Source: an uncultured Clostridia bacterium
GTDB lineage: Bacteria; Acidobacteriota; Blastocatellia; UBA7656; JADIYM01
Direction: 5' to 3'
DNA length: 64,000 nucleotides
NCBI GenBank assembly: GCA_964591515.1
Contig: CAZQBW010000001.1
Span: 36,316 to 100,315, forward strand
The notes beneath the pieces were generated by a model that was given only the letters and a program-made list of their open reading frames with translations, did no database searches and had not been told where the DNA came from. Positions within the stretch are counted from its first letter, which is position 1. The number at the start of each line of letters is the position of its first letter. Below, in pieces: positions 3,766 to 50,038 of this stretch. Made by a program: the position numbers and the translations under genes.

Positions 3766-6675
3766 CTATGCGCCGTTCCAGTTCCCCCGCACTGGCAGGA
3801 CTCCCGACGTCGGTCCGTAAGAAAAGGCGTAATCCGCCGGGCCGTTGGTGTTGCCATTGCGAAGGAAGAACGTACCTGTAGACGGCACGTAGAGTCCGAC
3901 CGAATCGACCGCGTCGGCGTTCCAGTCACCGGCAATCGGAGTCCACGCCATCCCCCCGGGACCGAACGTGAACACGATGTCAGCAGGGCCCGGGGTCGCC
4001 GTGTTCCTGAGGAAGAAGGCTCCGCTCGACGCGATGTAGATTCCGATGGAGTCCTCTCCGTCGCCGTTCCAGTCGCCGGCCAGTGGCATGGCTCCTGCCG
4101 GTCCGAACGTGAAGACGAGGTCGGCGCCGCCCGGCAAATTGAGATTTCGTAGAAAGAACGTGCCGGTTGCCGGTGAGTAGATTCCTACCGTGTCGCGACC
4201 GTCGTTGTCCCAGTCGCCGACGATCGGCACGAATCCCGCGTTTCCGGGACCGAACGAGAAGACGATGTCGGCAGGGCCGGGTGTGGACGTGTTCCGCAGG
4301 AAGAACGTGCCGGTCGTCGGGGCGTAGAAGCCCGGCGTGTCGTAGCCGTCGCCATCCCAGTCGCCGGCGAGCGGAGTCCATCCCGAGCCACCCGGACCGT
4401 ATCCGAACACCAGGTCCGCACCGCCGCCACTGTGCGCATTGCGGAGGAAGAACGCCGAAGTCGATGGCGCATACACGCCGACCGTATCGCCGACGGTCCC
4501 TCCAGCCGAATTGTCGCGCCACCAGCGCACGAGATCGCGGAAGGCCTGCGGCGGGTTCGTCGGAGCGGGCTGCCCGAGCACCGTGTCGGTCGAGTTGATG
4601 CCGTGGCAGTTGGCACACGACCGGATCTCGCCCGAGGCGAAAGTCACCCAGTAGCGCTCGCGGATGACCGGTACGCCCGCCGGCGTCGTCAGCTGCCACG
4701 ACAGCGCCCGGCGGGCAGGCACGATCGCGGCCATGCTGCCGTCGAGGCCAAGCTGCGTGCTGCCGGGTGGAGCTCCGATCAGCGCCGGATTCCGGCCCTC
4801 ATGCATGACTTGCGCGATTGGTCTGCGGCCGCCTTCGTTGATGACCGTGTAACCGCGAACGAGGTCTCCCTGGTAGAACTGCGCATAGAGCATGTCCGTC
4901 AGCGTCGAGCCCGGAAGCGCAGTCTGGACACCTCCACCGGCGATCCGCAGATTGAATGGCTGCTGCCGGTCCGCGCGCCGTGTCACGTTTCGCGAAGTGA
5001 TGAGCGCGACGTTGTGAGACGTGAGCCAGGACTTCAGCCGGTCGACTCCGGGCTGTCCGCCGAGCTCGTCGAGGAGGATCTGGTTTTCGATGGACGGAAG
5101 GGGATTCTGGTGAGTTGACGGCCGCGTCCGCGAACGGACTTCAACCGGATCGAGCTCCCACAGCGGGCCACTGTAGTTGAGCTGCGAGTAGGAGTAGTTG
5201 TCCCAGTAACTGATCGTCTTCGAGATGGGTGTCGCGAGCAGCCGGGTTCCCGGCGTGAAGTAGGGAGATCCAGGCGTCAGCCTGACGAGATGAAAGTCGT
5301 AAATCGACGACAGCGGCGATCCGGTCTGGTTGTCGTCGTATGCGGCTGTCGTCCGGACAGCGATCAGGGTTCCATCCGACAACGGTGTCGGATTCCGGAA
5401 GTGTCCGGCGTAGTTCGGTGGCGGCGTCTGGCCGTCCGGAATCGGATTGGCGGTATTCGGATCCGTTATGTAGTCGAACTGCATGTTGTCGGGGTTGACC
5501 GACTCGCCACCCGAGATCGCGACGATCTGTCCCGCAGCGTGCGTGCCGAACTCAGGAGCGCGCGTCGCGTAGAACCTGCCCGGAACGAGCGGATCTTCCT
5601 TGTAGTGGAAGGTATTAGTCGCGGTGCGCCGGTTCTGCGGAGCAATGAATTCCGGAAGGTCGTCGTTCGAAGAGTCGAAATAGCTGAGCAGCTCGTGGCG
5701 CCCGACGTGGTTGAGCGTCTCGAGAGCAGTTCCGTCCTCGTTGACCTGCCACGGAAAGAACTGGTTGATCGTGTGTCCGTGGTTGTACTCCGAGGCGGGC
5801 ATGACGCGCAGCTCCGGGTAGATCTCTGCAGTGCTGCCGGTGTTGAGTGCAGAAGACTCAGACGCATAATTGAACGCGCCGTAGTCGTTCGTGCCCTCGT
5901 CGTTCTGCTGGTCGCGCTGCAGGTGATCCCATCGCGTGAAGATGACGCGACCGTCGCTTGCGATGATCGGCGTGAACGAGCCCGAGATGGAGTGATCGAG
6001 CAGCTTGAGGTCCGAGCCGTCCGGATTCATCGACCAGATGCCGGTGTTGGTCGGCTGCGATTCGTATTCGTCGAGTTGCGGATAGCTCGACCGCTTGCCG
6101 TTTCGCGGCCGATCGGATGTGAACAGGATCCGGTCGTCGGTCCCGTAGATCGGCGAGACATTGTTGTAGTTGTCGGGCTGGGCGATCTTGCGGAACTGGA
6201 CCGTCTGTCCCTGACCTATACCGGTCACTTCATAGATCTGCCAGTAGACGGGCGTCAGCACGTCCTTCGTAGTGCCGCCTATCACCATGGAGACCAGCGC
6301 CTTGGTGCCGTCCCAATGGATGGACGGCTCGCGCACCGCAATGTCCTGCAGGGGAGTCGTACCGAAACCGGCCTGCTGCGTCAGGTTTCGCAGCGTGCCA
6401 TCCATGTAGCGGATCCAGAGATCTCCGCCACGGGGCGTCGAACCGGTGTTGGCCTCGTGGTTGCCGAATGTGGCGTTCGTGCTCGTGAAGTCGGCGCCGA
6501 ATGGCGCCTGGGTGCAGAACATCACGGCCGGCGTCATCATCGTTTCGGCAGAGCTTCGTGCTGCCGGAAGTGCGACGACCGAAAGAGTCGCGAGCAATGC
6601 TGCAGAGACGAGCTTCGCGACAGAATTCAGGCGCGCTCGCCGGGGCGACGGGTGAAAGCGCATGGCGTGCTCCAT
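3766..6675 (-). CDS. Secreted multidomain protein: TolB/PD40-like beta-propeller N-terminal region, single CxxCH heme motif (CANCH), C-terminal array of about six 44-aa FG-GAP-like repeats
   Basis: N-terminal signal peptide (KLVSAALLATLSVVALPA). Repeats of type TGTFFLRN..PG.ADIVF.FGPG...P.GDWDGDG.DT.GIY. Motif SCANCHG. Confidence 0.75.
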   Translation of the reverse strand: MEHAMRFHPSPRRARLNSVAKLVSAALLATLSVVALPAARSSAETMMTPAVMFCTQAPFGADFTSTNATFGNHEANTGSTPRGGDLWIRYMDGTLRNLTQQAGFGTTPLQDIAVREPSIHWDGTKALVSMVIGGTTKDVLTPVYWQIYEVTGIGQGQTVQFRKIAQPDNYNNVSPIYGTDDRILFTSDRPRNGKRSSYPQLDEYESQPTNTGIWSMNPDGSDLKLLDHSISGSFTPIIASDGRVIFTRWDHLQRDQQNDEGTNDYGAFNYASESSALNTGSTAEIYPELRVMPASEYNHGHTINQFFPWQVNEDGTALETLNHVGRHELLSYFDSSNDDLPEFIAPQNRRTATNTFHYKEDPLVPGRFYATRAPEFGTHAAGQIVAISGGESVNPDNMQFDYITDPNTANPIPDGQTPPPNYAGHFRNPTPLSDGTLIAVRTTAAYDDNQTGSPLSSIYDFHLVRLTPGSPYFTPGTRLLATPISKTISYWDNYSYSQLNYSGPLWELDPVEVRSRTRPSTHQNPLPSIENQILLDELGGQPGVDRLKSWLTSHNVALITSRNVTRRADRQQPFNLRIAGGGVQTALPGSTLTDMLYAQFYQGDLVRGYTVINEGGRRPIAQVMHEGRNPALIGAPPGSTQLGLDGSMAAIVPARRALSWQLTTPAGVPVIRERYWVTFASGEIRSCANCHGINSTDTVLGQPAPTNPPQAFRDLVRWWRDNSAGGTVGDTVGVYAPSTSAFFLRNAHSGGGADLVFGYGPGGSGWTPLAGDWDGDGYDTPGFYAPTTGTFFLRNTSTPGPADIVFSFGPGNAGFVPIVGDWDNDGRDTVGIYSPATGTFFLRNLNLPGGADLVFTFGPAGAMPLAGDWNGDGEDSIGIYIASSGAFFLRNTATPGPADIVFTFGPGGMAWTPIAGDWNADAVDSVGLYVPSTGTFFLRNGNTNGPADYAFSYGPTSGVLPVRGNWNGA

Positions 6676-6797
6676 TCCGGGGGCGGACGGAAAGAAGTTG
6701 ATGTGGGTTCCGCGTTAGCGGGGGACCGAACTTCGCGATTGTCGGCCATGACCTACGGATCGTCAACACGGGGGGAGGGATTGAAGTTGGAGATGCC

Positions 6798-6900
6798 GGC
6801 GTTGCCGTACAGAGAACACAGAGGCACGGAGAGCACAGAGAAATCTGTTCATCAGGACTCTGTGTTCCCCGTGCCTCTGTGCTCTCTGTACGGCAACGCC
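6798..6900. repeat. CACAGAG-family palindromic intergenic element (about 103 bp, 32-bp arms with 31/32 complementarity)
   Basis: ggcgttgccgtacagagaacacagaggcacgg ... ccgtgcctctgtgctctctgtacggcaacgcc, read directly in sequence. Sits in a divergent promoter region. Confidence 0.6.
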
Positions 6901-6998
6901 TCCTCAGTCTCAGTCGGCGAGACACTCGACTTGAGGTTCCGGCGTCGCAACCATAGAATTGCCCCACCTCCCATTACTTCGAAGCCAGAGGGTTACCA

Positions 6999-9125
6999 AT
7001 GATCCGGATCCACCGTTCGTTGCCGTCCGCCGTCCTGCTGTGCCTCCTGCTCGCCAACGTCGTGTTCGGGTCTTCGGCGCTCGTTCGAAAGGACCAGCAG
7101 TCGGCCCCGGCGCTCGCCGTCGTCACGATCGACAAGATCGGGTACGAGCGTTGGTCCGCGTTGACGTCGAGCCCGGCTCTCGCGTGGTGGGTCGAGGTCG
7201 ACACGCACCTGCTTGTTGCAGGCGATCGGGCGGCGCTGTCAGCGCTTCTCGGCGGTCGCTTCGTTTTCCGATTCCTCGACGGCAGTCCGTCGACGGAGGG
7301 TCTCTACTTCACGAATCGATTCCCGGCGAACGAGATCGAGTCAGTTGGCGCGACCATCCTCGTCTCGGATGGCGGATCCAGCGTCATCCGGGCCACCCCT
7401 ACGCAAGTTGCCTCGCTCGAGGATCTCCACGCGGGCGACGACGAGGACGGCTGCCGCGGGCATGCGACGATCCGGCCATTCCAGCCGAACATGCAGCTCT
7501 CGCATCAGGCAGCCAACAGCAACGTTCCGACCTCGGCCCAGTTCAATGCGGCTATTCAGGGGCTCGTGGATCAGGTCAATGGATCGCGCTGGTTCGCTGA
7601 CGATCAGTCGCTCGCGACTTTCAACCGATGGACGCGTGGCGGGTCGATCATCAACGCACGGGAATGGCTCATCACGCAATTCCAGTCGATGCCTGGCCTG
7701 ACGGTCACGACGCAGTCGTTCACCGTACCGGCGAGCGGAGGAAATCCCGCCGTGACGGCCTACAACGTCATTGCGACGTTGCCCGGCACGACGCGCCCCA
7801 ACGACTGGTACATCGTCGGTGCGCACTATGACGCGATCTCCAACGACGATGGACACGCCACGGCAAGGGGAGCGGAAGACAACGGTTCGGGCTCTACCGG
7901 AGTTCTCGAGCTTGCCCGCATCTTCACCGCAAACCCTCCCGACGCCACGATGAAGTTCATCTGTTATGCGGGGGAGGAGCAGGGTCTGTACGGCTCGATC
8001 GCGCACGCCCAGTCGCTGGTGACATCGGGCGACAACGCGAAAGTCCGCGGGATGTTCAACCTCGACATGATCGGGTACACCGGCGACACGGACCTGGACT
8101 GCCGGCTTGAAACGCGGGCAATCGGACAGGGCCTGATGGATGCTTGCTCGGCCGCGGCGGCGCAGTACACGACGCTGCGAATCGTCACGTCTCTGAACCC
8201 ATGCTGTTCTGATCACCAGCCTTACCTGGACCGTTCGATGCCGGCAATTCTCGCCATCGAGAACGACTATGGAACGTATCCCGGCTATCACCAGTCTTCG
8301 GATCTATCGAACAACCTGACGATCGAAATGGCCGTGCAGATCCTCAAGATGTACGTGGCGACGATCGCGCAAATGGTCGGCACGAGTCCCGCCGGTCTCG
8401 GCCTCGAGACAGCAGGCGTCTATTCCCAATCAACGGGCACATTTTTCCTCAGGAACTCTAATTCGCCGGGCGGCGCCGACGCTGCCTTCCAGTTCGGTGC
8501 GGCTGCTGCTGGCTTCACGCCGCTGGCAGGCGACTGGAACGGTGATGGCGTCGACACGATTGGCCTCTACCGTGGAAACACGTCGACGTTCTTCCTTAGG
8601 AACTCGAACACGCCCGGAGCTGCCGACGTGGTTGTCTCGTTCGGCGCCGGTGGTGCCGGGTACCTGCCGCTCGTCGGCGACTGGGACGGCAACGGCACTG
8701 ACACCGTCGGGTTGTATCAGCCCTCAACCGGAGCGTTCTTCCTTCGCAACTCGAACACTCCGGGTGGCGCCGACGTCGTCTTCACATACGGACCCGCGAA
8801 CGCGACGCCGGTCGTCGGAGACTGGGACGGCAGCGGTACCACCACGATCGGGATCTTCATTGGTTCGACCTCGACCTGGTTCCTCCGCAACTCGAATACG
8901 CCGGGCGGTGCCGACATCGTGTTCGGGTACGGACCTGCCGGTTCTGGCTGGCTTCCGGTTGTCGGAGACTGGAACAACGACAACGCCCAGACTGTCGGAC
9001 TTTATGATCCGGTCGGTGGCAACTGGTTCCTCCGAGACTCGAACAGCGCGGGGCCAGGCACGAACGTCTTCGGATACGGTCCGACGGGCCTGATCCCGGT
9101 TCGCGGCGACTGGGACGGGCTGTAA
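6999..9125 (+). CDS. Secreted M28-family Zn aminopeptidase with C-terminal array of six 44-aa FG-GAP-like repeats
   Basis: Signal peptide. M28 motifs (HYDAISNDDGHATARGAEDNGSGSTGVLELARIF, CYAGEEQGLYGS, FNLDMIGY). C-terminal repeats FFLRNSNTPGGADVVF.YGP...GDWDGDG.DT.GLY, same type as in 3766..6675. Confidence 0.8.
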   Translation: MIRIHRSLPSAVLLCLLLANVVFGSSALVRKDQQSAPALAVVTIDKIGYERWSALTSSPALAWWVEVDTHLLVAGDRAALSALLGGRFVFRFLDGSPSTEGLYFTNRFPANEIESVGATILVSDGGSSVIRATPTQVASLEDLHAGDDEDGCRGHATIRPFQPNMQLSHQAANSNVPTSAQFNAAIQGLVDQVNGSRWFADDQSLATFNRWTRGGSIINAREWLITQFQSMPGLTVTTQSFTVPASGGNPAVTAYNVIATLPGTTRPNDWYIVGAHYDAISNDDGHATARGAEDNGSGSTGVLELARIFTANPPDATMKFICYAGEEQGLYGSIAHAQSLVTSGDNAKVRGMFNLDMIGYTGDTDLDCRLETRAIGQGLMDACSAAAAQYTTLRIVTSLNPCCSDHQPYLDRSMPAILAIENDYGTYPGYHQSSDLSNNLTIEMAVQILKMYVATIAQMVGTSPAGLGLETAGVYSQSTGTFFLRNSNSPGGADAAFQFGAAAAGFTPLAGDWNGDGVDTIGLYRGNTSTFFLRNSNTPGAADVVVSFGAGGAGYLPLVGDWDGNGTDTVGLYQPSTGAFFLRNSNTPGGADVVFTYGPANATPVVGDWDGSGTTTIGIFIGSTSTWFLRNSNTPGGADIVFGYGPAGSGWLPVVGDWNNDNAQTVGLYDPVGGNWFLRDSNSAGPGTNVFGYGPTGLIPVRGDWDGL

Positions 9126-9128
9126 TCC

Positions 9129-9998
9129 GTGAATCGGAGGGCGTTTGTAGCCGCGACAATAGCGGTGTCAGGCGCCCTCCTGCTTTCCGCTTGCACGAAC
9201 CCTGCTCCGACGTCTCCCGCGAGCCGCCACGAACTGACCGGACGTATCGTATCGATCGACGCGTCGTCCGGTCGTGTCACCGTCGCGCACAGGGCAATTC
9301 CGGGGTTCATGGATGCAATGACGATGGAGATGGCCGTCGAACCTCCGTCGTCGGTGGCGACGCTAATTCCCGGCGACAGGATTCGCGCGACTCTCGTCAT
9401 CGACGACGAAAAGACCTGGATCGAGAACGTCGAAAGGCTTGAAGGCGAGGCCGCCGGGTTCGACGTCGATGACGCCAGGGATCCCGATCTCGGCGCACCG
9501 GTCCCGCCATTCGAGCTCACTGATCAGAACGGTCAGCGATTCGGCTGGGAGCGGTTCCGAGGCCAGGCCGTGCTCGTGTCGTTCATCTACACTCGATGCC
9601 CGCTTCCGGATTACTGCGCCCGTATGACGGCGAACTTCGACGAGATCGCGCGCACGCTCGAATCCCGGCCGTCCGGTCGCCGGACCAGGTGGGCACTTCT
9701 GAGCATATCGATCGACCCGGATCACGACTCGCCGGCCGTGCTTCGGGACTACGCAGCGCTTCAGGCGCCGACCGCCGGCAACTTCGAGCGGTGGACCTTC
9801 GCGACTGGCTCTCCGGACGAGGTCAGAGCCGTTGCCCGGTTCTTCGGCCTGTCTTATGAAACCCAGTCCGGACAGATCGTCCACTCGCTGCGGACTGTTC
9901 TGGTCGGTCCTGACGGGCGGGTCGCGAAGCTCTTCCGCGGGAATACCTGGACGACCGACGAGGCAATCCGGGCTCTCGAGTCTGCTGACGCACGCTGA
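9129..9998 (+). CDS. SCO1/SenC-family lipoprotein (thioredoxin-like CxxxC copper chaperone) with N-terminal metal-binding-like extension
   Basis: Lipobox LLSAC. SCO1 motif FIYTRCPLPDYC with downstream His. Confidence 0.7.
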   Translation: MNRRAFVAATIAVSGALLLSACTNPAPTSPASRHELTGRIVSIDASSGRVTVAHRAIPGFMDAMTMEMAVEPPSSVATLIPGDRIRATLVIDDEKTWIENVERLEGEAAGFDVDDARDPDLGAPVPPFELTDQNGQRFGWERFRGQAVLVSFIYTRCPLPDYCARMTANFDEIARTLESRPSGRRTRWALLSISIDPDHDSPAVLRDYAALQAPTAGNFERWTFATGSPDEVRAVARFFGLSYETQSGQIVHSLRTVLVGPDGRVAKLFRGNTWTTDEAIRALESADAR

Positions 9999-10038
9999 CG
10001 ATCACACCTCGGTGATCGCCAGCGTTCATCCGTTGACG

Positions 10039-11577
10039 CTACCGCTGAAAGAGGAATTCCGGTGACGATGCTCCGTCCGGGTTGAGAACACGGACCGAGA
10101 CCGTCTCACCGGCGGGAATCGCCGTCGCCCAGGCGTTTTTCGACAGAGCCTTGTGGCGTGACTTCACCTTCGTATCGCGAACCAGCTCGCCGTTCACCAT
10201 GATCAGACTGCCGGCGCGGATGTCATCGCCTTCGACGATGAGCTTCGAGCCCTGGACTCGAATACCGGAAACGACCGGCGTCGAAGGTTCGCGGTGCTCG
10301 GCATCGATGGTCAGACCGAGGAAGCCGATGCACATCTCGTCCGTAGTCTTCTCGCCCCACGAGACGTCGACCGGCGGAATCGTCGGCTGATTGTGGTTCA
10401 GCTCAGAATTGTCGTACCGGGCCGTGAGCTCGACCCTCGTCGCACCTGGAATTGCCAGAGGCTGCCGGTATTTGTACGAGCCTTGCCAGTGGAAGTCCCA
10501 GTTGTCGATGAAGATGAGACACTGGCGCTCGCCCGTGACGAGGTTCTGGGCCGTCAGCTGCATCTCGCGTCCGAGCAGGTGCATATGCGGCGAGATGTAC
10601 TCAACCTTGACGTTCACCAAGGGCGGAAACGTGAACGACGCCGTAACCGGATAGTCACGCGCGTTGGCGGGAATCGTGAAGTTCTGATTGATAACCGGAA
10701 GGATGATCACGTCCTGGTATACCGGCGACCTCGCGAACTTGAGCGCGATCGACGTCGTGTCGACCTCATCCTGACCGTTCGGCTTGTAATGCACCTGAGC
10801 GACGATGCGAGCGCCCTTCGGCACGAGATAGCCAGTTCCATCACGGAGCACCTGTGGCGGAGCACCCGGTGCCCATCCGCCAAGCGTTCCTACAGTGGCG
10901 AAGCCCGGACCGCCGAAACTCGTGTAGCCGGGACCCGGATCCTGCTGATCGAGAGTAACGGAGATTCCGGTTGCGTCGATGTAGAGGATGACGTGGTGCA
11001 CGATCTTCCGATTGCTCGGGCTCACCTCGACGGCCGTGATGAATCGGTCCGCATCGAAGTTCGTCGGTATCGTGAAGCAGCGATAGATGTCGGCCGTAGC
11101 CGATGCCGGAACCCGGTAACCGCTCGGGACCGTCTGAAGTTCGATGTCAGGCACGCCGAGTTTCCACCCGTTGTCGAATACGAGCGACTCGGGCAGATCG
11201 ACTGGATTGCCCTCGGGAGCACCAGCATCCGCCCACTCCGCGAGCGTCGCGATTTCTTCATCCGTCAGGCCACGCTTGTTGGCGAAGTCGCCGCATCCGT
11301 CGACCGGCTTCCAGGGCGGCATCGCGCGAGATTGCGTCTCGGTCCGGATCGCTTCGGCCCACGGCGCGGCATCCTCGTACGTCATCAGACTGAAAGGAGC
11401 GATGTCACCCGGGTGGTGGCACGTCTGGCAGTTCTGCTGGAAGATCCGCACGACCTGATTCGAGAACGTTGCCGGCTCTGCAGGTGCTGCAGCCTGCGAA
11501 GTGGAGCGATCGGAAACGGCATACGCGCCCGCGGCGAGCGCCAACGCGAACGTGAGCAGACCGAGCGAACGTTTCAT
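10039..11577 (-). CDS. Secreted cytochrome c (PSCyt-like CQTCHH) fused to a copper type-II monooxygenase-like (PHM/DBH-like) domain
   Basis: Start placed at internal MKRSLGLLTFALALAAGAYA signal peptide. CxxCH plus MPPW motif. Motifs HHVILY and SPHMHLLGREM resemble Cu-monooxygenase His clusters. Confidence 0.6.
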   Translation of the reverse strand: MKRSLGLLTFALALAAGAYAVSDRSTSQAAAPAEPATFSNQVVRIFQQNCQTCHHPGDIAPFSLMTYEDAAPWAEAIRTETQSRAMPPWKPVDGCGDFANKRGLTDEEIATLAEWADAGAPEGNPVDLPESLVFDNGWKLGVPDIELQTVPSGYRVPASATADIYRCFTIPTNFDADRFITAVEVSPSNRKIVHHVILYIDATGISVTLDQQDPGPGYTSFGGPGFATVGTLGGWAPGAPPQVLRDGTGYLVPKGARIVAQVHYKPNGQDEVDTTSIALKFARSPVYQDVIILPVINQNFTIPANARDYPVTASFTFPPLVNVKVEYISPHMHLLGREMQLTAQNLVTGERQCLIFIDNWDFHWQGSYKYRQPLAIPGATRVELTARYDNSELNHNQPTIPPVDVSWGEKTTDEMCIGFLGLTIDAEHREPSTPVVSGIRVQGSKLIVEGDDIRAGSLIMVNGELVRDTKVKSRHKALSKNAWATAIPAGETVSVRVLNPDGASSPEFLFQR

Positions 11578-11817
11578 TACGAAAACCCTGTATCGGCGTG
11601 GGATGAGCGCGCGAACCGCGGCGCCCGAACTATACTCCGGACCCGACTCCTGGCTCAACGCCCGGGCCACCCCAATCCGATTTGTCTGGTGAATGCGTAG
11701 ACGGGTCGTTCAACCGACTGAGAACGACCCTGCAACTTCGGAATCTTCATGAGGAACTCCTGTCGCCGGTCGTGACTCAATCGCGTCCTCACCGCGAATG
11801 GAGGCGTCACGCAGGTC

Positions 11818-12015
11818 ATGAACGCGTTCTTCCGTGGGACGTCGCCCACCGTGTATGTCGACAATGCGACCGACAAGCGCTACTTCGAGACCCAGAACTA
11901 TTTCGAGTCCAGGCTCCGGCCGGGAGATCCGGTGAGCTCGCGCATCCACGGAACGCCGGGGTACCCGGTCACGATCACCGCCGGCTTGACGTTCCGGCTT
12001 TTCGCCAATAACTGA
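11818..12015 (+). pseudogene. Probable remnant of the C-terminus of a TonB-dependent outer-membrane receptor
   Basis: Translation VYVDNATDKRYFETQNYFESRLRPGDPVSSRIHGTPGYPVTITAGLTFRLF matches the TBDR C-terminal beta-barrel consensus. No upstream in-frame body. Confidence 0.4.
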
Positions 12016-13554: not shown

Positions 13555-14361
13555 CTACTTGAAGCCAAGCTTCGTTCGCAGCTTGTCCTTGACGATGACA
13601 CCCTTGGCGAATGCCGCGTCAGCAGTCTCACGCACTCCCACGAGAGTGAACGTATGCCACTTCGCCTTCGCGTCGGCGAGCATCGCCTTGACGGCGGCGA
13701 GCTCTGCTTCTTCCGCAGCCACATTCACCTTTCTTTCCTTCGCGGCGTCCATCAATCCGGTTGCCCAGACAACGATTCCGTTGGCGCGATCGATCGCTTC
13801 CATGGCCGTCAGCGCGGAGGCCTCGATGTCCTTGCGATTCGGCAGGAGGTTCCGTTCGATGCCGTGGCACTGGGCGCACAGATTCGCTGCTTCAGGCGGG
13901 AACGAGGCGACGGTTGACGCCATGTGCTGATGGCACGTCGCGCACGTCGGTCCGAGGCCGGCGGCCTTCAACTTCTGGTAATGCGTGCTGCCGGTGAATG
14001 CCGTCGTAATCGGCTCGTGGCAGGCGCCGCAGGTCTGCGGGAGGTTGAGGGAATTGGTCTTGCTCTGCGCTTCTACTGACTTGAGTACGCCGACGTGGGA
14101 CTTTTCCTTGCGGTCCGTGGTCGGGTCCCCGCCGTGGCATTTGTCGCAACTCACGGCCGTCTGCATGTGCCGCGAGAGGTGCCACTCGAGATAGTGGTTG
14201 GTCATTCCCTCGAACTTGAGGTCTCTGGAATGACACGAAACGCACGAGTTGCCCTTGAAAGCCGCGAGTTCGTCCTGAGGCGAGTCGGTGACAGGTCTCG
14301 CGAACGCGATGACTCCGAGGAACAATGCGGCGAAGGCGACGACGACAAAGGTCTTGAACAT
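13555..14361 (-). CDS. Pentaheme c-type cytochrome (secreted or membrane-anchored)
   Basis: Five CxxCH motifs (CVSCH, CDKCH, CGACH, CATCH, CAQCH). Start placed at MFKTFVVVAFAALFLGVIAFA. Confidence 0.8.
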   Translation of the reverse strand: MFKTFVVVAFAALFLGVIAFARPVTDSPQDELAAFKGNSCVSCHSRDLKFEGMTNHYLEWHLSRHMQTAVSCDKCHGGDPTTDRKEKSHVGVLKSVEAQSKTNSLNLPQTCGACHEPITTAFTGSTHYQKLKAAGLGPTCATCHQHMASTVASFPPEAANLCAQCHGIERNLLPNRKDIEASALTAMEAIDRANGIVVWATGLMDAAKERKVNVAAEEAELAAVKAMLADAKAKWHTFTLVGVRETADAAFAKGVIVKDKLRTKLGFK

Positions 14362-14793
14362 GGCGCTTCTCCCATCGAGCGGCTCGACGCCTGCGCCGTG
14401 GCTACTCAGATGTGGCGCCGATTCCTGCCGAGCCTGCGCGATGGAAGGTGCAACCTGCGTGCCAAGTTGACGATTTGAACGCCCCAGACTGGGGCAGCCC
14501 GAAATCGCCGCGTTCCCCCGCATCCCGCCGTCCTTCAGGTATTTCGCTCTGATCGAATCTGCGCCATATGACGAGCCCACGTGCGGAAATGCACCCGGCT
14601 CGACGCTTCATTTCTGAAGGCGTCCGGTGCCTGGCATCCGGCCACCGCGGGCGGACGGCGCCGGCGACCCGACTTCCACCATCTTGAAAGGATCTCAGTG
14701 GAGAATGCGAACGATCCGCTAGTCCATGGCGCAGAGATCCCCCGGGCCGTCAGAGTTTCCGCGATGTCGATCGTTAGTTCCCTCTGACTGAGA

Positions 14794-17064
14794 TCACGGA
14801 ATCGTCGCCACGACGGCTGCCGAGTATGCGGGACCGGGATTGGCGATCCGCACTTCCACTTGTGTTCCTGCCGGCACTGCCGCCCGTTCGATTCGTACGC
14901 GGAAGCTCTTCTTGCTCGTCCGCTCAACCGACATCAATGGAACGGCAGTGCCCGAGCCGTCCGCGAGCCTCACATCGACCGTCGCGTCGTCGAGTACGTA
15001 CTTTCCGCGCACTGTCAGCGTGATGTTCGATCCGTCAGCCACGGTTACTTTCTTGACGAGCGGTCCGATCAGCAGCAGCGGAACGACCGCAACGGATGGA
15101 TCCGTCCCCGGATTCCGGACCTGTACAACCACGCTGCCAGGCGTGTTGCGAACCTCCGGAATGTCATCGAGCGCAACTCTCAGCGTCCGCATGTCGACGA
15201 ACTCAGTCGGCGCGTCGATCCCGTTCAGGACCGCTACTGACCCCGCGACGAACAGCCGCGATGCGTCCGTCGATGCGTTGTTCAGAGTCAGGACGATACC
15301 GGGCTCGCCAGCGTAGATCTTCTTCCTGTCGGGAGCGACAGTCACCGACGTAAGGAGCGGTGAGCTCTGAGCTCCGCGACCGGCGCGCTGGCTGAACCAC
15401 TTTCCAGAGATGATGTACGACTCGCCAGCCGCGTCCAGTCTGTTCCCGGCGCCATCGCCGCCCATTGCATTCGGAACCAGGTCGATGAATCCGTCTCCGT
15501 CGACGTCACCGGTCGCGAGTGAGTACGTGAACATGTCGCCCGCATCAGGCGCCACGATCTGGAAGATCGGCACCGACGGCGGATTGTTCGCCGTGTCGAC
15601 GATCGCCGGAAATGGCTGCTCCGAGCCGAAGATGACTTTCAGGTCGCCGGCGGATTCGCGTCCTGCGCCAGCGTTGATCGGACTTCCGAAGAGAATGTCG
15701 TCGAGACCGTCGTCGTCGATGTCGGCGATACGTAGCGAATCCGCGCCAATGTCGCCGGCGTTCTCACCGTAAATTGTCAGCGCCTTCGCGTTTGCCGCGT
15801 TCCTGAGATCGATCCGGTCTCCGCGTCCGAAACGGCTCCCCCAGACGATGTAGCCGATACCCGCTGCATTCCTGCCCGGCGCATCCGCAACGAGGGCGCC
15901 GATCGCCAGTTCATCGCGCCCGTCGCCGTCGATGTCGCCGGCATCGACGTCTTCCCCAAAGTACCCGTTCGCCTGATCGCCATACACGATGGTGGTGTCG
16001 TTCGGCGGATTCGAAAGCTGAATGGCGGATGGCCACGCCGCGCGACCGTAGAGCACAGTCACCTCGCCAGCGTTCTGCCGGTCGTTGTTCGGGCCGTCGC
16101 CGCCGCCCTGGCCGATGCCGTTGTTCACCTGGCCGTAGCCGGTATACGCAGCCCCCGCGCGCGAGACTCCGGCCGAGCAGGCGATGTCTCCGAAACCGTC
16201 GCCATCGAAATCGCCGGTGGAGATGCACGAGCCGAAGTGATCCTGGTCATCGAGTCCATAGACTGCGGTCACGTCGAGACTGCTCAGATCGGAACCTCGG
16301 GAAAGGTCTATCCGGGCCGGAAAATCCTGACCGCCTGGAATCATGTAAAGGATGCCCCGGGCGGCGCCGGCCCCGCTGCTGCTCTTCGCAAGGTCCGCCG
16401 AGACGAGAATATCGGCGATATCGTCACCGGTGACGTCGCCGGCGTGAACCCAGAATCCCAGCCGGTCGCCCGGGTTCGCTCCGAGAATCTGAATGACGGA
16501 GGGTCCCGGATTGACGAGGTCGATCGTTGGAGGAAACTCGGGCCGGCCGATCACGACATATGCCACGCCTGCCTGCGACCGATTCGAGTCGTTGTCGAAT
16601 CCGTCTCCGTTCTGCGCACCAGTCAGGATATCGGCGATCCCGTCACCGGTGACGTCGCCGAGCGAGATCTCGGTTCCGAGAAAGTCGTCCGGGCGAGCGC
16701 CGAAGATCGAGCACGTGCCCGCAGGAGCCTGGGCCATGTCCACAACCGACCCGGTCAGCGCATCCGCGGATCCGAAGGCCACGTTGATCTGACCGGCAGC
16801 ACGGCGCCCGCCGGACGGTCCCGACGGTCCGTAGAACGCGGCAAGCGCAACGTCATCGAAACCGTCGCCGTTGACATCGCCAGAGCCGACCGGCATTCCG
16901 AGGAGCGATCCTTCGGAGTAGCCGTTGTAGACCGTCATCTGTCCCATCTGGCTGGTGTCACGAGTGTCCCAGATCCGAGTGTAGATGGCGGATGCCGGAA
17001 TTGCCGGAATGGACCAGAGAACGATGGCGGGCAGGACGAGGCTTGCAATGTAGCGTCGGTTCAC
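14794..17064 (-). CDS. Secreted FG-GAP (integrin-alpha-like) beta-propeller protein with C-terminal Ig-like (IPT/TIG-like) domains
   Basis: Signal peptide. Repeated GDVNGDGFDDV, GDVTGDGIADIL, GDFDGDGFGDI, GDIDGDGRDEL, GDVDGDGFIDLV motifs. Confidence 0.8.
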   Translation of the reverse strand: MNRRYIASLVLPAIVLWSIPAIPASAIYTRIWDTRDTSQMGQMTVYNGYSEGSLLGMPVGSGDVNGDGFDDVALAAFYGPSGPSGGRRAAGQINVAFGSADALTGSVVDMAQAPAGTCSIFGARPDDFLGTEISLGDVTGDGIADILTGAQNGDGFDNDSNRSQAGVAYVVIGRPEFPPTIDLVNPGPSVIQILGANPGDRLGFWVHAGDVTGDDIADILVSADLAKSSSGAGAARGILYMIPGGQDFPARIDLSRGSDLSSLDVTAVYGLDDQDHFGSCISTGDFDGDGFGDIACSAGVSRAGAAYTGYGQVNNGIGQGGGDGPNNDRQNAGEVTVLYGRAAWPSAIQLSNPPNDTTIVYGDQANGYFGEDVDAGDIDGDGRDELAIGALVADAPGRNAAGIGYIVWGSRFGRGDRIDLRNAANAKALTIYGENAGDIGADSLRIADIDDDGLDDILFGSPINAGAGRESAGDLKVIFGSEQPFPAIVDTANNPPSVPIFQIVAPDAGDMFTYSLATGDVDGDGFIDLVPNAMGGDGAGNRLDAAGESYIISGKWFSQRAGRGAQSSPLLTSVTVAPDRKKIYAGEPGIVLTLNNASTDASRLFVAGSVAVLNGIDAPTEFVDMRTLRVALDDIPEVRNTPGSVVVQVRNPGTDPSVAVVPLLLIGPLVKKVTVADGSNITLTVRGKYVLDDATVDVRLADGSGTAVPLMSVERTSKKSFRVRIERAAVPAGTQVEVRIANPGPAYSAAVVATIP

Positions 17065-47725: not shown

Positions 47726-50038
47726 CTAGGGAGCGACGGCCATCGCAGGGCTAGAATAGGCCGGACCTGGATTGACGGCCCTGACGGTGAGAACGGCACC
47801 TGACGGTTGACCTGGAATCGTCGCCCGAAGCTTCGTCCCGCTCTTTCGAACGACCGAGATCGTCGGGATTTCCACACCGCTCGCGTTGGCTACCGTGACA
47901 GTGGATCCTGCGAGGAAGTCAGCTCCCTTCACTGTCAGCCTCAGGTTTGCTCCCTTCTTCTGCAGCTTGATGAACGTTATCGACGGACCCCTGAGCGTTA
48001 TCGCCGAAACGCCGATCGACGCATCGGATCCGGGGTTCTTGACCCGAGCCGTCACGAGTCCAGGCGTATTGCGCACCTCGGGTGCGTCATCGAGGCTGAC
48101 ACGCAGTTCCTTGTTGTTGATGAAGGTCGTCTGTACCTCCACGCCGTTCAGTATCGCCTTCGCTCCGGCCACGTACAGACCGTCCGACTGATCGGTTTCG
48201 CAGAGCAGCGTCAACTGAATTCCAGTCTGTCCCGCGTAGTACACCGTCGACGCCGGTGACACCGTCACCCTCGTCAGGCAGGGAGTGCCGGCGGGCCCGC
48301 GACCGGCGCGCAAACTGAATTCCTTTCCCGACAGGATGTACAGCTCGCCCGCATCGCGGCAGCAGTTGCCGAGTCCGTCACCGCCCATTCCATTTGGCAT
48401 GAGATCGGTGAAGCCGTCGCCGTCAAAGTCGCCGACAGTAAATGAGTAGGCGAACATGTCGCCCGGATCCGCGGCGATCACCTGATATACAGACACGGAG
48501 GCCGGCGGATTCGCCAGGTCGACGACCGTCGGCAGCCGGTCAGCATCGCCGAAGATCACCTTGATGTCGCCGGCTTCGGGGCGAGATGCCGGATCGTAGG
48601 TCGGACTCGCGAAGATCATCTCGTCGAGTCCGTCGGCATTGACGTCTGCGAGCGCGATCGTGTCTGACCCGATGTCACCTGCGGCCTCGCCATAGATGCG
48701 CGTCATTCGCGGTTCGGTCGTTCCGAGAGCGCGAGTGTCGACCCGCTCGCCCCGAGATATGAACGTACCCCAGAAGATGTAGCCTACGCCGCTGTCGTTT
48801 CGCGGCGGAACGCCCGGAGTTCCGGACGGCGCGCTTGCCGTGAGTGCTCCGACCGCAAGTTCGATCTGGCCGTCGCCGTCGAAGTCGCCGACGCGCACAT
48901 CCTCGCCGAAGTGATCACCGCCGTTCTGCCCGTAATAGATCGCCACGTCGGCTGTCGGGTTCGACAACTCCATGGTCGCCGGCCAGTTCGTCCGCCCGTA
49001 GATGATGTAGACCTCGCCAGCCTCGGTCCGGTCGTTGCTGGGTCCGCCGCCGCCGCCAAGTCCGTTGGAGCAGAATGCGCCAGCAGGCTCTTCTACCTTT
49101 GCCGTCGGAAACGCGCCGGAGCGGGCCAGGCCGGCGGAACAGACGATGTCGTCGATTCCGTCCCTGTCAAAGTCACCTGAAGTGATACATGAGCCGAAGT
49201 GGTCACAATCATCGACACCATAGATGATCGAAATGTCCAGACTTGCGAGTTGACTTGAGCTTCCGAGGTCGATCTGAGCCGGTAGAGTCGGCCCGCCGGG
49301 AATGATGTAGAGCTTTCCACGTGCTGATCCGATTCCAGCTGAGCTCTTCGCAAGGTCGGCTGAAACGAGGATGTCGTTCGTCCCGTCGCCGTTCACGTCG
49401 CCGTACGACGGCCAGAATCCGCAGCGTTCGCCCGCAACTGCGCCAATGATCTCGGTCACACCCGTCATCGGAGTGCCCGCAAGGTCAATCGTCTCGGGCC
49501 AGGTCGTTCTGCCGTTGATGACGTAGAGCTTGCCGGCCAGCGGACGGCTCGAATCGGTGCCTAGGCCATCGGCGTTCTGCGCCCCGACGAGAATGTCCTC
49601 CAGTCCGTCGCCGGTCACGTCGCCGGTCTCCACCTCGTTTCCAAGAAAATCGCCCGCTCGTGCGCCAAAAATCGTCGTGTGAGTACCGGGGGCCGCCGTC
49701 AAATCGGTCACGGTGCCGGAGATGGAATCCGGGGCGCCGAAATGGACCTGTAGCTCGCCTGCACGCGGTCGCACGTTGCCCGGTCCCGAGGGAGCGAGAA
49801 ATGGAGCGAGGATGGCATCGTCATCGCCGTCGCCGTCGAGATCGCCGGAAGCGCACGGCATCCCGAGGGTCGTGCCGTCCGGGTCGGAGTTGTAGATCGA
49901 CCTCTGACCGGTTTGCGCGGTGGTCTTGATGTCCCAGATCATCGTCGTCGCGCGCTCATCGGCTCGAGCCTGTCGCGCTGGTGCAATGACAGCAAACGCG
50001 AGGCACATCGCAACCGCAATTCCCGCAAGTCTTTTCAT
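47726..50038 (-). CDS. Secreted FG-GAP beta-propeller plus IPT-like protein, paralog of 14794..17064
   Basis: Start at MKRLAGIAVAMCLAFAVIAPA. Co-linear similarity to the 14794..17064 product (IWDIKTTAQTGQRSIYN..GDLDGDGDDDAILA vs IWDTRDTSQMGQMTVYN..GDVNGDGFDDVALA). Confidence 0.8.
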   Translation of the reverse strand: MKRLAGIAVAMCLAFAVIAPARQARADERATTMIWDIKTTAQTGQRSIYNSDPDGTTLGMPCASGDLDGDGDDDAILAPFLAPSGPGNVRPRAGELQVHFGAPDSISGTVTDLTAAPGTHTTIFGARAGDFLGNEVETGDVTGDGLEDILVGAQNADGLGTDSSRPLAGKLYVINGRTTWPETIDLAGTPMTGVTEIIGAVAGERCGFWPSYGDVNGDGTNDILVSADLAKSSAGIGSARGKLYIIPGGPTLPAQIDLGSSSQLASLDISIIYGVDDCDHFGSCITSGDFDRDGIDDIVCSAGLARSGAFPTAKVEEPAGAFCSNGLGGGGGPSNDRTEAGEVYIIYGRTNWPATMELSNPTADVAIYYGQNGGDHFGEDVRVGDFDGDGQIELAVGALTASAPSGTPGVPPRNDSGVGYIFWGTFISRGERVDTRALGTTEPRMTRIYGEAAGDIGSDTIALADVNADGLDEMIFASPTYDPASRPEAGDIKVIFGDADRLPTVVDLANPPASVSVYQVIAADPGDMFAYSFTVGDFDGDGFTDLMPNGMGGDGLGNCCRDAGELYILSGKEFSLRAGRGPAGTPCLTRVTVSPASTVYYAGQTGIQLTLLCETDQSDGLYVAGAKAILNGVEVQTTFINNKELRVSLDDAPEVRNTPGLVTARVKNPGSDASIGVSAITLRGPSITFIKLQKKGANLRLTVKGADFLAGSTVTVANASGVEIPTISVVRKSGTKLRATIPGQPSGAVLTVRAVNPGPAYSSPAMAVAP

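Follow-up and report, generated by a model that had tools for sequence, protein, structure and literature searches.

Two convergent genes lie side by side in the stretch of DNA analysed here, which comes from a soil-type bacterium of the Blastocatellia (the window, 64,000 nucleotides in full; G+C content about 62%). The open reading frame on the reverse strand, ORF B, encodes 512 residues, in which a mono-haem cytochrome c domain precedes a core of the PHM/DBH copper monooxygenase type. The open reading frame on the forward strand, ORF A, encodes a lipoprotein of 289 residues with a CusF-like and a SCO1-like domain. The two stop codons are separated by 40 bp. An earlier reading of the same letters (the original prediction) had placed both frames exactly here, in convergent orientation. 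It had described ORF B as a cytochrome c fused to a PHM/DBH-type core of unspecified substrate, and this description is now supported by a family profile and by the copper ligands. The exact ORF B protein is present in NCBI, ENA and Logan assemblies, unnamed in every source.

The motifs on which that description was built were all found at the residues named: CQTCHH at 50–55, MPPW at 86–89, HHVILY at 194–199, SPHMHLLGREM at 329–339 and TDEMC at 412–416. The reading frame of ORF B is open beyond the ATG at 11577, as far as a GTG at 11670. The ATG at 11577 is favoured as the start, because the N-termini of homologues, a signal peptide running from Met1 and a promoter-like site agree on it; all homologues in an alignment of 28 sequences (A1) begin at the equivalent MKR. 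Attachment of c-type haem needs export. With a signal peptide from Met1, haem c attachment and copper loading of ORF B would both be extracytoplasmic. ORF B has the CxxCH motif, the distal Met and the signal peptide of a class I c-type cytochrome and is predicted to be one. The label 'PSCyt-like', given to this domain in the original prediction, does not hold: among Pfam families only generic class I cytochrome c families matched, and PSCyt1 gave no match at E <= 1.

Searched alone against PDB sequences, ORF B gave only spurious multihaem matches, and a family profile was required. The profile built from A1 finds rat PHM (E 4e-12) and human DBH (E 1e-5), and the six copper ligands fall in register. 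Against PHM, VHHVILY falls on VHHMLLF (H107/H108), QVHY on LQVHY (Q170/H172), PHMHLLG on VHTHHLG (H242/H244) and TDEMC on SDEMC (D312-E313-M314). At the CuH site, two adjacent His and a third His are present (H194, H195 and H263 of ORF B, corresponding to H107, H108 and H172 of PHM). At the CuM site, His-x-His and a Met are present (H331, H333 and M415, corresponding to H242, H244 and M314). Loss of these ligands on a proper alignment had been named in advance as the outcome that would overturn the assignment; the ligands are retained, both in PHM register and across the family. All six, together with the axial M86, are invariant in the close homologues in which conservation was counted (121/121), and C50, C53 and H54 of the CxxCH motif are kept in 120 of these 121. 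In a diverse set of 150 representatives, clustered at 50% identity, all six ligands occur together in 136; counted singly, CuH residues are found in 143–149 and CuM residues in 142–149 representatives. The cytochrome c motif is in register in 124/150, and most of the sequences without it are short and probably fragments.

Residues of the second sphere are conserved as well. Y79, Q170, Q272, Y275 and E313 of PHM correspond to Y165, Q261, Q365, Y368 and E414 of ORF B. The residues with which PHM anchors peptidylglycine are replaced: R240 by S329 (T, A or S family-wide), N316 by I417 (L, I or V) and Y318 by F419 (F). In substrate terms ORF B is therefore no orthologue of PHM.

An AlphaFold2 model of ORF B, computed on A1, has a pLDDT of 84.9 and a pTM of 0.79. 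It shows the two-domain double jelly-roll fold of copper type II monooxygenases (clan CL0612). A Foldseek search with the model returns the same ranking, with weak matches to viral double jelly-roll capsids. These weak matches are consistent with the known relationship between the jelly-roll capsid and PHM folds (PMC8812541). Disulfide tethers C95-C167 and C353-C416 were considered as a sign of rigid docking between haem and CuH and were dropped, since the covariation across the family at large is weak. Coordinates of the features are collected in Table 1.

Table 1. Positions, strands and bases of assignment of features at the locus of ORF A and ORF B (window coordinates).
Feature	Position	Strand	Basis or remark
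ORF B, cytochrome c-PHM-like fusion gene, 512 aa	10039-11577	(-)	stop codon 10039-10041; open reading frame, homologue starts
ORF B, Sec-type signal peptide, residues 1-20 (MKRSLGLLTFALALAAGAYA)	11518-11577	(-)	by eye from sequence
ORF B, mono-haem class I cytochrome c domain, residues ~35-125	11203-11475	(-)	Pfam Cytochrome_CBB3/Cytochrom_C matches
ORF B, CQTCH haem motif	11416-11430	(-)	
ORF B, predicted axial Met86 of MPPW	11320-11322	(-)	
ORF B, PHM N-terminal (CuH) jelly-roll domain, residues ~140-290	10708-11160	(-)	
ORF B, CuH ligands H194/H195; H263	10993-10998; 10789-10791	(-)	
ORF B, PHM C-terminal (CuM) jelly-roll domain, residues ~291-430	10288-10707	(-)	HMH and DEM aligned to PHM
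ORF B, CuM ligands H331-M-H333; M415	10579-10587; 10333-10335	(-)	
ORF B, C-terminal Ig-like (IPT/TIG-type) domain, residues ~435-512	10042-10275	(-)	
Sigma-70-like promoter match	11629-11658	(-)	upstream of ATG 11577; 9/12 consensus matches, consensus match only
ORF A, CusF-SCO1 fusion lipoprotein gene, 289 aa	9129-9998	(+)	open reading frame and Pfam
ORF A, signal peptide, RR motif and lipobox LSAC (Cys22)	9129-9194	(+)	by eye from sequence
ORF A, CusF-like Cu(I)/Ag(I)-binding domain	9228-9434	(+)	Pfam CusF_Ec PF11604, E 1e-13, 51.2 bits against a cut-off of 27
ORF A, CusF His54 and M61-x2-M64-x-M66 cluster	9288-9332	(+)	
ORF A, SCO1/SenC thioredoxin-fold domain	9504-9923	(+)	Pfam PF02630, E 3e-22, 79.4 bits against a cut-off of 22.8
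ORF A, SCO motif CPLPDYC (CX5C); His252	9597-9617; 9882-9884	(+)	
M28 peptidase gene	6999-9125		ends 3 bp before ORF A start; two genes from ORF B

The family to which ORF B belongs is very large. More than 4,592 homologues were found; a search with the copper core alone (residues 130–430) gave 8,983 representative clusters (50% identity) at E <= 1e-3, of which 1,485 reached E <= 1e-30. The cytochrome c domain is present in almost every complete member; many members also have an additional N-terminal redoxin domain or stand in tandem with paralogues. Architectures comprise cytochrome c-PHM, as in ORF B, in some cases followed by IPT/TIG and TIGR03437 tails; Redoxin(AhpC/TSA)-cytochrome c-PHM, about 600–650 residues; duplicated versions; and forms with an EF-hand or dockerin tail. 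In all architectures examined, Redoxin-fused and doubled ones included, the cytochrome c domain stands immediately N-terminal of the CuH domain. Some homologues pass the Pfam gathering thresholds. Relatives are named 'ascorbate-dependent monooxygenase' (NCBI) or 'cytochrome c family protein'; the former name rests on domain similarity only and is probably misleading for the bacterial clade.

The 80 closest relatives were taken as genome loci from one-genome-per-species contigs, with flanks of up to 8 kb per side. All bear the label Acidobacteriota or an 'uncultured' label that is evidently a mis-assignment; Blastocatellia, Thermoanaerobaculia and Chloracidobacterium are the groups named, and the best match is a Blastocatellia metagenome-assembled genome at 87% identity. 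Tandem paralogues occur. Five stand in a row in a Blastocatellia metagenome-assembled genome (L023, 158–8470; 35–53% identity to ORF B), two in each of L008 and L010, and four Redoxin-cytochrome c-PHM genes are clustered on a Planctomycete-like contig (L089, 3–15188). Immediate neighbours in related loci are FdhD, peptidases (S9, S41, M48, S8), two-component systems and amidohydrolases.

ORF A had been described as a SCO1-family copper lipoprotein, and so it remains: the SCO1/SenC and CusF domains score above their Pfam cut-offs and a lipobox is present. H54 and M64-x-M66 align with the His, Met and Met ligand positions of CusF and SilB. Against Sco of Bacillus subtilis (1on4/1xzo; E 5e-17) both Cys and the His are aligned, with an insertion of two residues. 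About 2,300 homologues exist, named 'SCO family protein' or 'copper-binding protein', and the fusion is common in Acidobacteriota. Public gene calls shorten ORF A to 229 residues (L001, 11580–12269), which cuts the CusF domain; the form of 289 residues is supported, since tblastn alignments to two related loci (L005, L006) run from residue 1. ORF A combines in one lipoprotein both domains, with their copper ligands, of SCO1/SenC (B. subtilis Sco/YpmQ) and Escherichia coli CusF; it differs from them in this fusion, in having CX5C rather than CX3C, and in the lack of adjoining cytochrome oxidase genes in the window.

ORF B is probably an exported copper monooxygenase of the PHM/DBH class, located in the periplasm or at the surface of the cell, in which the fused haem c replaces ascorbate as the point of electron entry. 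The analysis shows its architecture and fold, its conserved ligands and second-sphere residues, its export signal, the size of the family and the variable gene context; that haem and copper occupy their sites, which way the electrons flow, and that the reaction is that of a monooxygenase and not of an oxidase or reductase are inferred. The haem c would take its electrons from c-type cytochromes, soluble or membrane-bound, that belong to the respiratory chain. Electrons would pass from the haem to CuH (His194, His195, His263), which is adjacent to it in sequence, and then across the interdomain cleft to CuM (His331, His333, Met415). O2 would be activated at CuM and a C-H bond of the bound substrate hydroxylated. 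The substrate would not be a glycine-extended peptide held in the manner of PHM, because the residues that anchor its carboxylate are replaced. Arrays of tandem paralogues are typical of substrate-diversified enzymes and suggest that small molecules or peptides of diverse kinds are used.

A wider proposal is advanced tentatively, as a serious possibility short of probable. It takes the relatives of ORF B (about 9,000 clusters; Acidobacteriota and the Planctomycete-like contig) as a very large bacterial clade of PHM/DBH type. Its members would be wired to the respiratory chain through haem c, CuH and CuM, would hydroxylate new extracytoplasmic substrates, and might represent a prokaryotic root of the animal neuropeptide and catecholamine enzymes.

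Several observations weigh against a cytochrome-fed monooxygenase. As a single sequence ORF B stays below the curated Pfam cut-offs (Cytochrome_CBB3, 25 bits against 27; Cu2_monooxygen PF01082, 19.5 bits against 30; Cu2_monoox_C PF03712, 14.6 bits against 23). Sub-threshold scores together with a profile match to PHM at E 4e-12 place ORF B in a distant clade of the superfamily. Clustering of the open reading frames and a Pfam tally of the neighbours at the 80 loci gave no partner family in more than 11 of them; with no conserved operon partner, the substrate and the electron donor cannot be read from gene context. Some carriers are classed as Thermoanaerobaculia, a class that includes anaerobes, and the family, if common in strict anaerobes, would fit poorly with O2-dependent chemistry. 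A characterised bacterial cytochrome c-PHM member was not found in open-access full-text literature, where absence is no proof. Finally, the same layout of two coppers and a cytochrome c could serve a reductase or oxidase reaction.

Such a reaction is the strongest of the competing explanations and is considered unlikely. ORF B would then be a cytochrome c-dependent reductase or oxidase acting at copper on O2, nitrite or nitric oxide, superoxide or peroxide, in a respiratory or detoxifying role, by analogy with copper nitrite reductases that have a fused cytochrome c. Consistent with this are the fused haem c with two mononuclear copper sites (about 11 Å apart in the PHM template), the nitrite-bound crystal structures of PHM (3mib and 3mlk, among the Foldseek matches), the many paralogues with an N-terminal redoxin domain of the AhpC/TSA type, which would fit oxidant chemistry, and the fact that genes of this type usually stand alone, outside any pathway context. 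The ligands, however, are exactly the His3 and His2Met sets of PHM and not those of NirK (type 1 and type 2); the residues of the second sphere that are linked to catalysis in PHM are kept; and for an enzyme of respiration or detoxification, tandem arrays with as many as five diverged paralogues are out of the ordinary. By a further explanation, ORF B would be a conventional orthologue of PHM or DBH that amidates glycine-extended peptides or hydroxylates phenylethylamines with ascorbate as reductant. It would account for the fold and the six copper ligands common to PHM, DBH and ORF B, for the NCBI name of the relatives, for the share of peptidases (S9, S41, M48, S8) among immediate neighbour genes (about 15%) and for the M28 peptidase two genes from ORF B in the window. 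It is nevertheless rated highly improbable. The whole family has other residues in place of R240, N316 and Y318, identity to PHM is just 16–19%, the near-universal cytochrome c fusion argues for electron supply by a protein, and the peptidase neighbours reflect lineage-linked synteny and are statistically non-independent. To our knowledge, no ascorbate pool exists in the bacterial periplasm, which likewise counts against an ascorbate-dependent enzyme.

The remaining explanation concerns the pair. The original prediction implied a partnership with the SCO1 protein; in its strong form, the locus would be a dedicated functional pair or a copper-homeostasis module, in which the CusF-SCO1 protein specifically metallates ORF B, or in which ORF B itself handles copper. 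Both proteins are predicted from their sequences to be exported and to bind copper, and the convergent adjacency with its 40-bp gap is kept in three related loci (L005 and L006, 87% identity; L007, 63% identity, with a SCO1 protein 46% identical). These three are the only such cases among the 80, all at 63% identity or above, and in the flanks of the other 77 (up to 8 kb per side) no SCO1-like gene was found, even at E 1e-2. Adjacency limited to close relatives looks like local synteny. CusF-SCO1 proteins are common as stand-alone genes: two more distant orthologue loci have unrelated neighbours and no PHM-like gene; in one of them, that of Pyrinomonas (L087, GCA_000820845.2), the orthologue (6001–6909) stands beside ETF and a fab cluster (FabF, ACP, FabD, FabH, PlsX). 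The same fab cluster is found within a few kb of the locus in the lineage of the window (L001 gene list), which suggests that this region acquired the PHM-like, HD_4, cytochrome and FG-GAP genes as lineage-specific additions. ORF A and ORF B are on opposite strands, and the gap of 3 bp to the M28 peptidase gene indicates that ORF A is probably co-transcribed with that gene and not with ORF B. The redoxin domains of the paralogues do not restore the link. They were considered as a 'Rosetta-stone' connection to SCO1 and rejected, having a monothiol CPxS/A motif and only generic thioredoxin-fold similarity to the SCO domain of ORF A (blastp E 0.02–0.2). The dedicated pair is accordingly regarded as distinctly unlikely. 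ORF A is probably a general periplasmic copper-chaperone lipoprotein, a mere neighbour of ORF B with no dedicated partner in it; it may metallate periplasmic cuproenzymes, ORF B among them.

The nearest known systems compare with ORF B as follows. From PHM, the catalytic core of PAM (1phm/1opm/1sdw), ORF B differs in its N-terminal cytochrome c and C-terminal IPT/TIG domains, in the replaced anchors, in a family-specific YDNSxxNPxNPNxPP loop, in being bacterial and exported, and in a presumed reductant that is a cytochrome rather than ascorbate. DBH, tyramine beta-monooxygenase and MOXD1 (4zel) are compared next: DBH has a DOMON domain and a C-terminal dimerisation domain, whereas the N-terminal module of ORF B is a c-type cytochrome, predicted to hold its haem covalently. 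The bacterial Redoxin-cytochrome c-PHM-like proteins (uncharacterised; P0131, P0143, P0144) share the ligands of ORF B and 34–46% identity in the core; they have an extra N-terminal thioredoxin-fold domain of the AhpC/TSA type with monothiol CPxS/A, which ORF B lacks, and some of them are duplicated or end in an EF-hand or dockerin tail. In cytochrome c-fused three-domain NirK, and in cellobiose dehydrogenase, whose cytochrome feeds lytic polysaccharide monooxygenases, a haem domain passes electrons to mononuclear copper outside the cytoplasm. The design principle is common to these systems and ORF B; folds and copper site types are unrelated and no homology is implied.

Among non-coupled binuclear copper monooxygenases, PHM and DBH are the textbook cases; the mode of electron transfer from CuH to CuM over about 11 Å is still debated. 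A built-in haem c donor, if the proposed function is correct, would offer an expressible bacterial system in which this transfer could be triggered optically or electrochemically. PHM/DBH chemistry would then be confined neither to eukaryotes nor to ascorbate, and abundant soil and wastewater bacteria would hold periplasmic or secreted C-H hydroxylases by the thousand, as yet unexplored and possibly active in the turnover of peptides or organic matter. PHM/DBM are treated as eukaryotic in a review and a comparative-genomics study (PMC7435645, PMC8812541) and are listed solely in the eukaryote column of the former (PMC7435645). The domains of ORF B are already recognised by automated pipelines and the gene is not unknown to databases; the enzyme type predicted from its sequence, PHM-like, wired to haem c and with a substrate site unlike that of PHM, is unstudied. 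Its appeal lies in bioinorganic chemistry and in annotation, yet ORF B is a single protein among the very many of its family.

Minor features of the surroundings are as follows. An inverted repeat (GATCAC, 6 nucleotides, GTGATC) lies at 10001–10018, within the convergent gap of 40 bp; a terminator scan left it unflagged. In the 580-bp gap upstream of ORF B, an open reading frame of 65 residues (11818–12015, forward strand) is a gene call in public assemblies, has no Pfam match and may be a gene remnant or spurious. A pentahaem c-type cytochrome (13555–14580, reverse strand; five CxxCH, Cytochrome_C7 at E 5e-9) is encoded 2 kb from ORF B on the same strand, with an HD_4-domain gene on the opposite strand between the two; it is a conceivable candidate for the electron donor of ORF B. 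A secreted protein of 969 residues (3766–6675, reverse strand) has a single CxxCH (CANCHG) within a weak match to the middle domain of hydrazine synthase alpha (PF18582, E 8e-5), and its C-terminal repeat module of about 240 residues (FFLRN...GDWDGDG) shares 59% identity with the C-terminal end of the neighbouring M28 peptidase. Large FG-GAP repeat proteins are encoded at 14794–17064 and 47729–49945, both on the reverse strand, and are 50% identical to each other.

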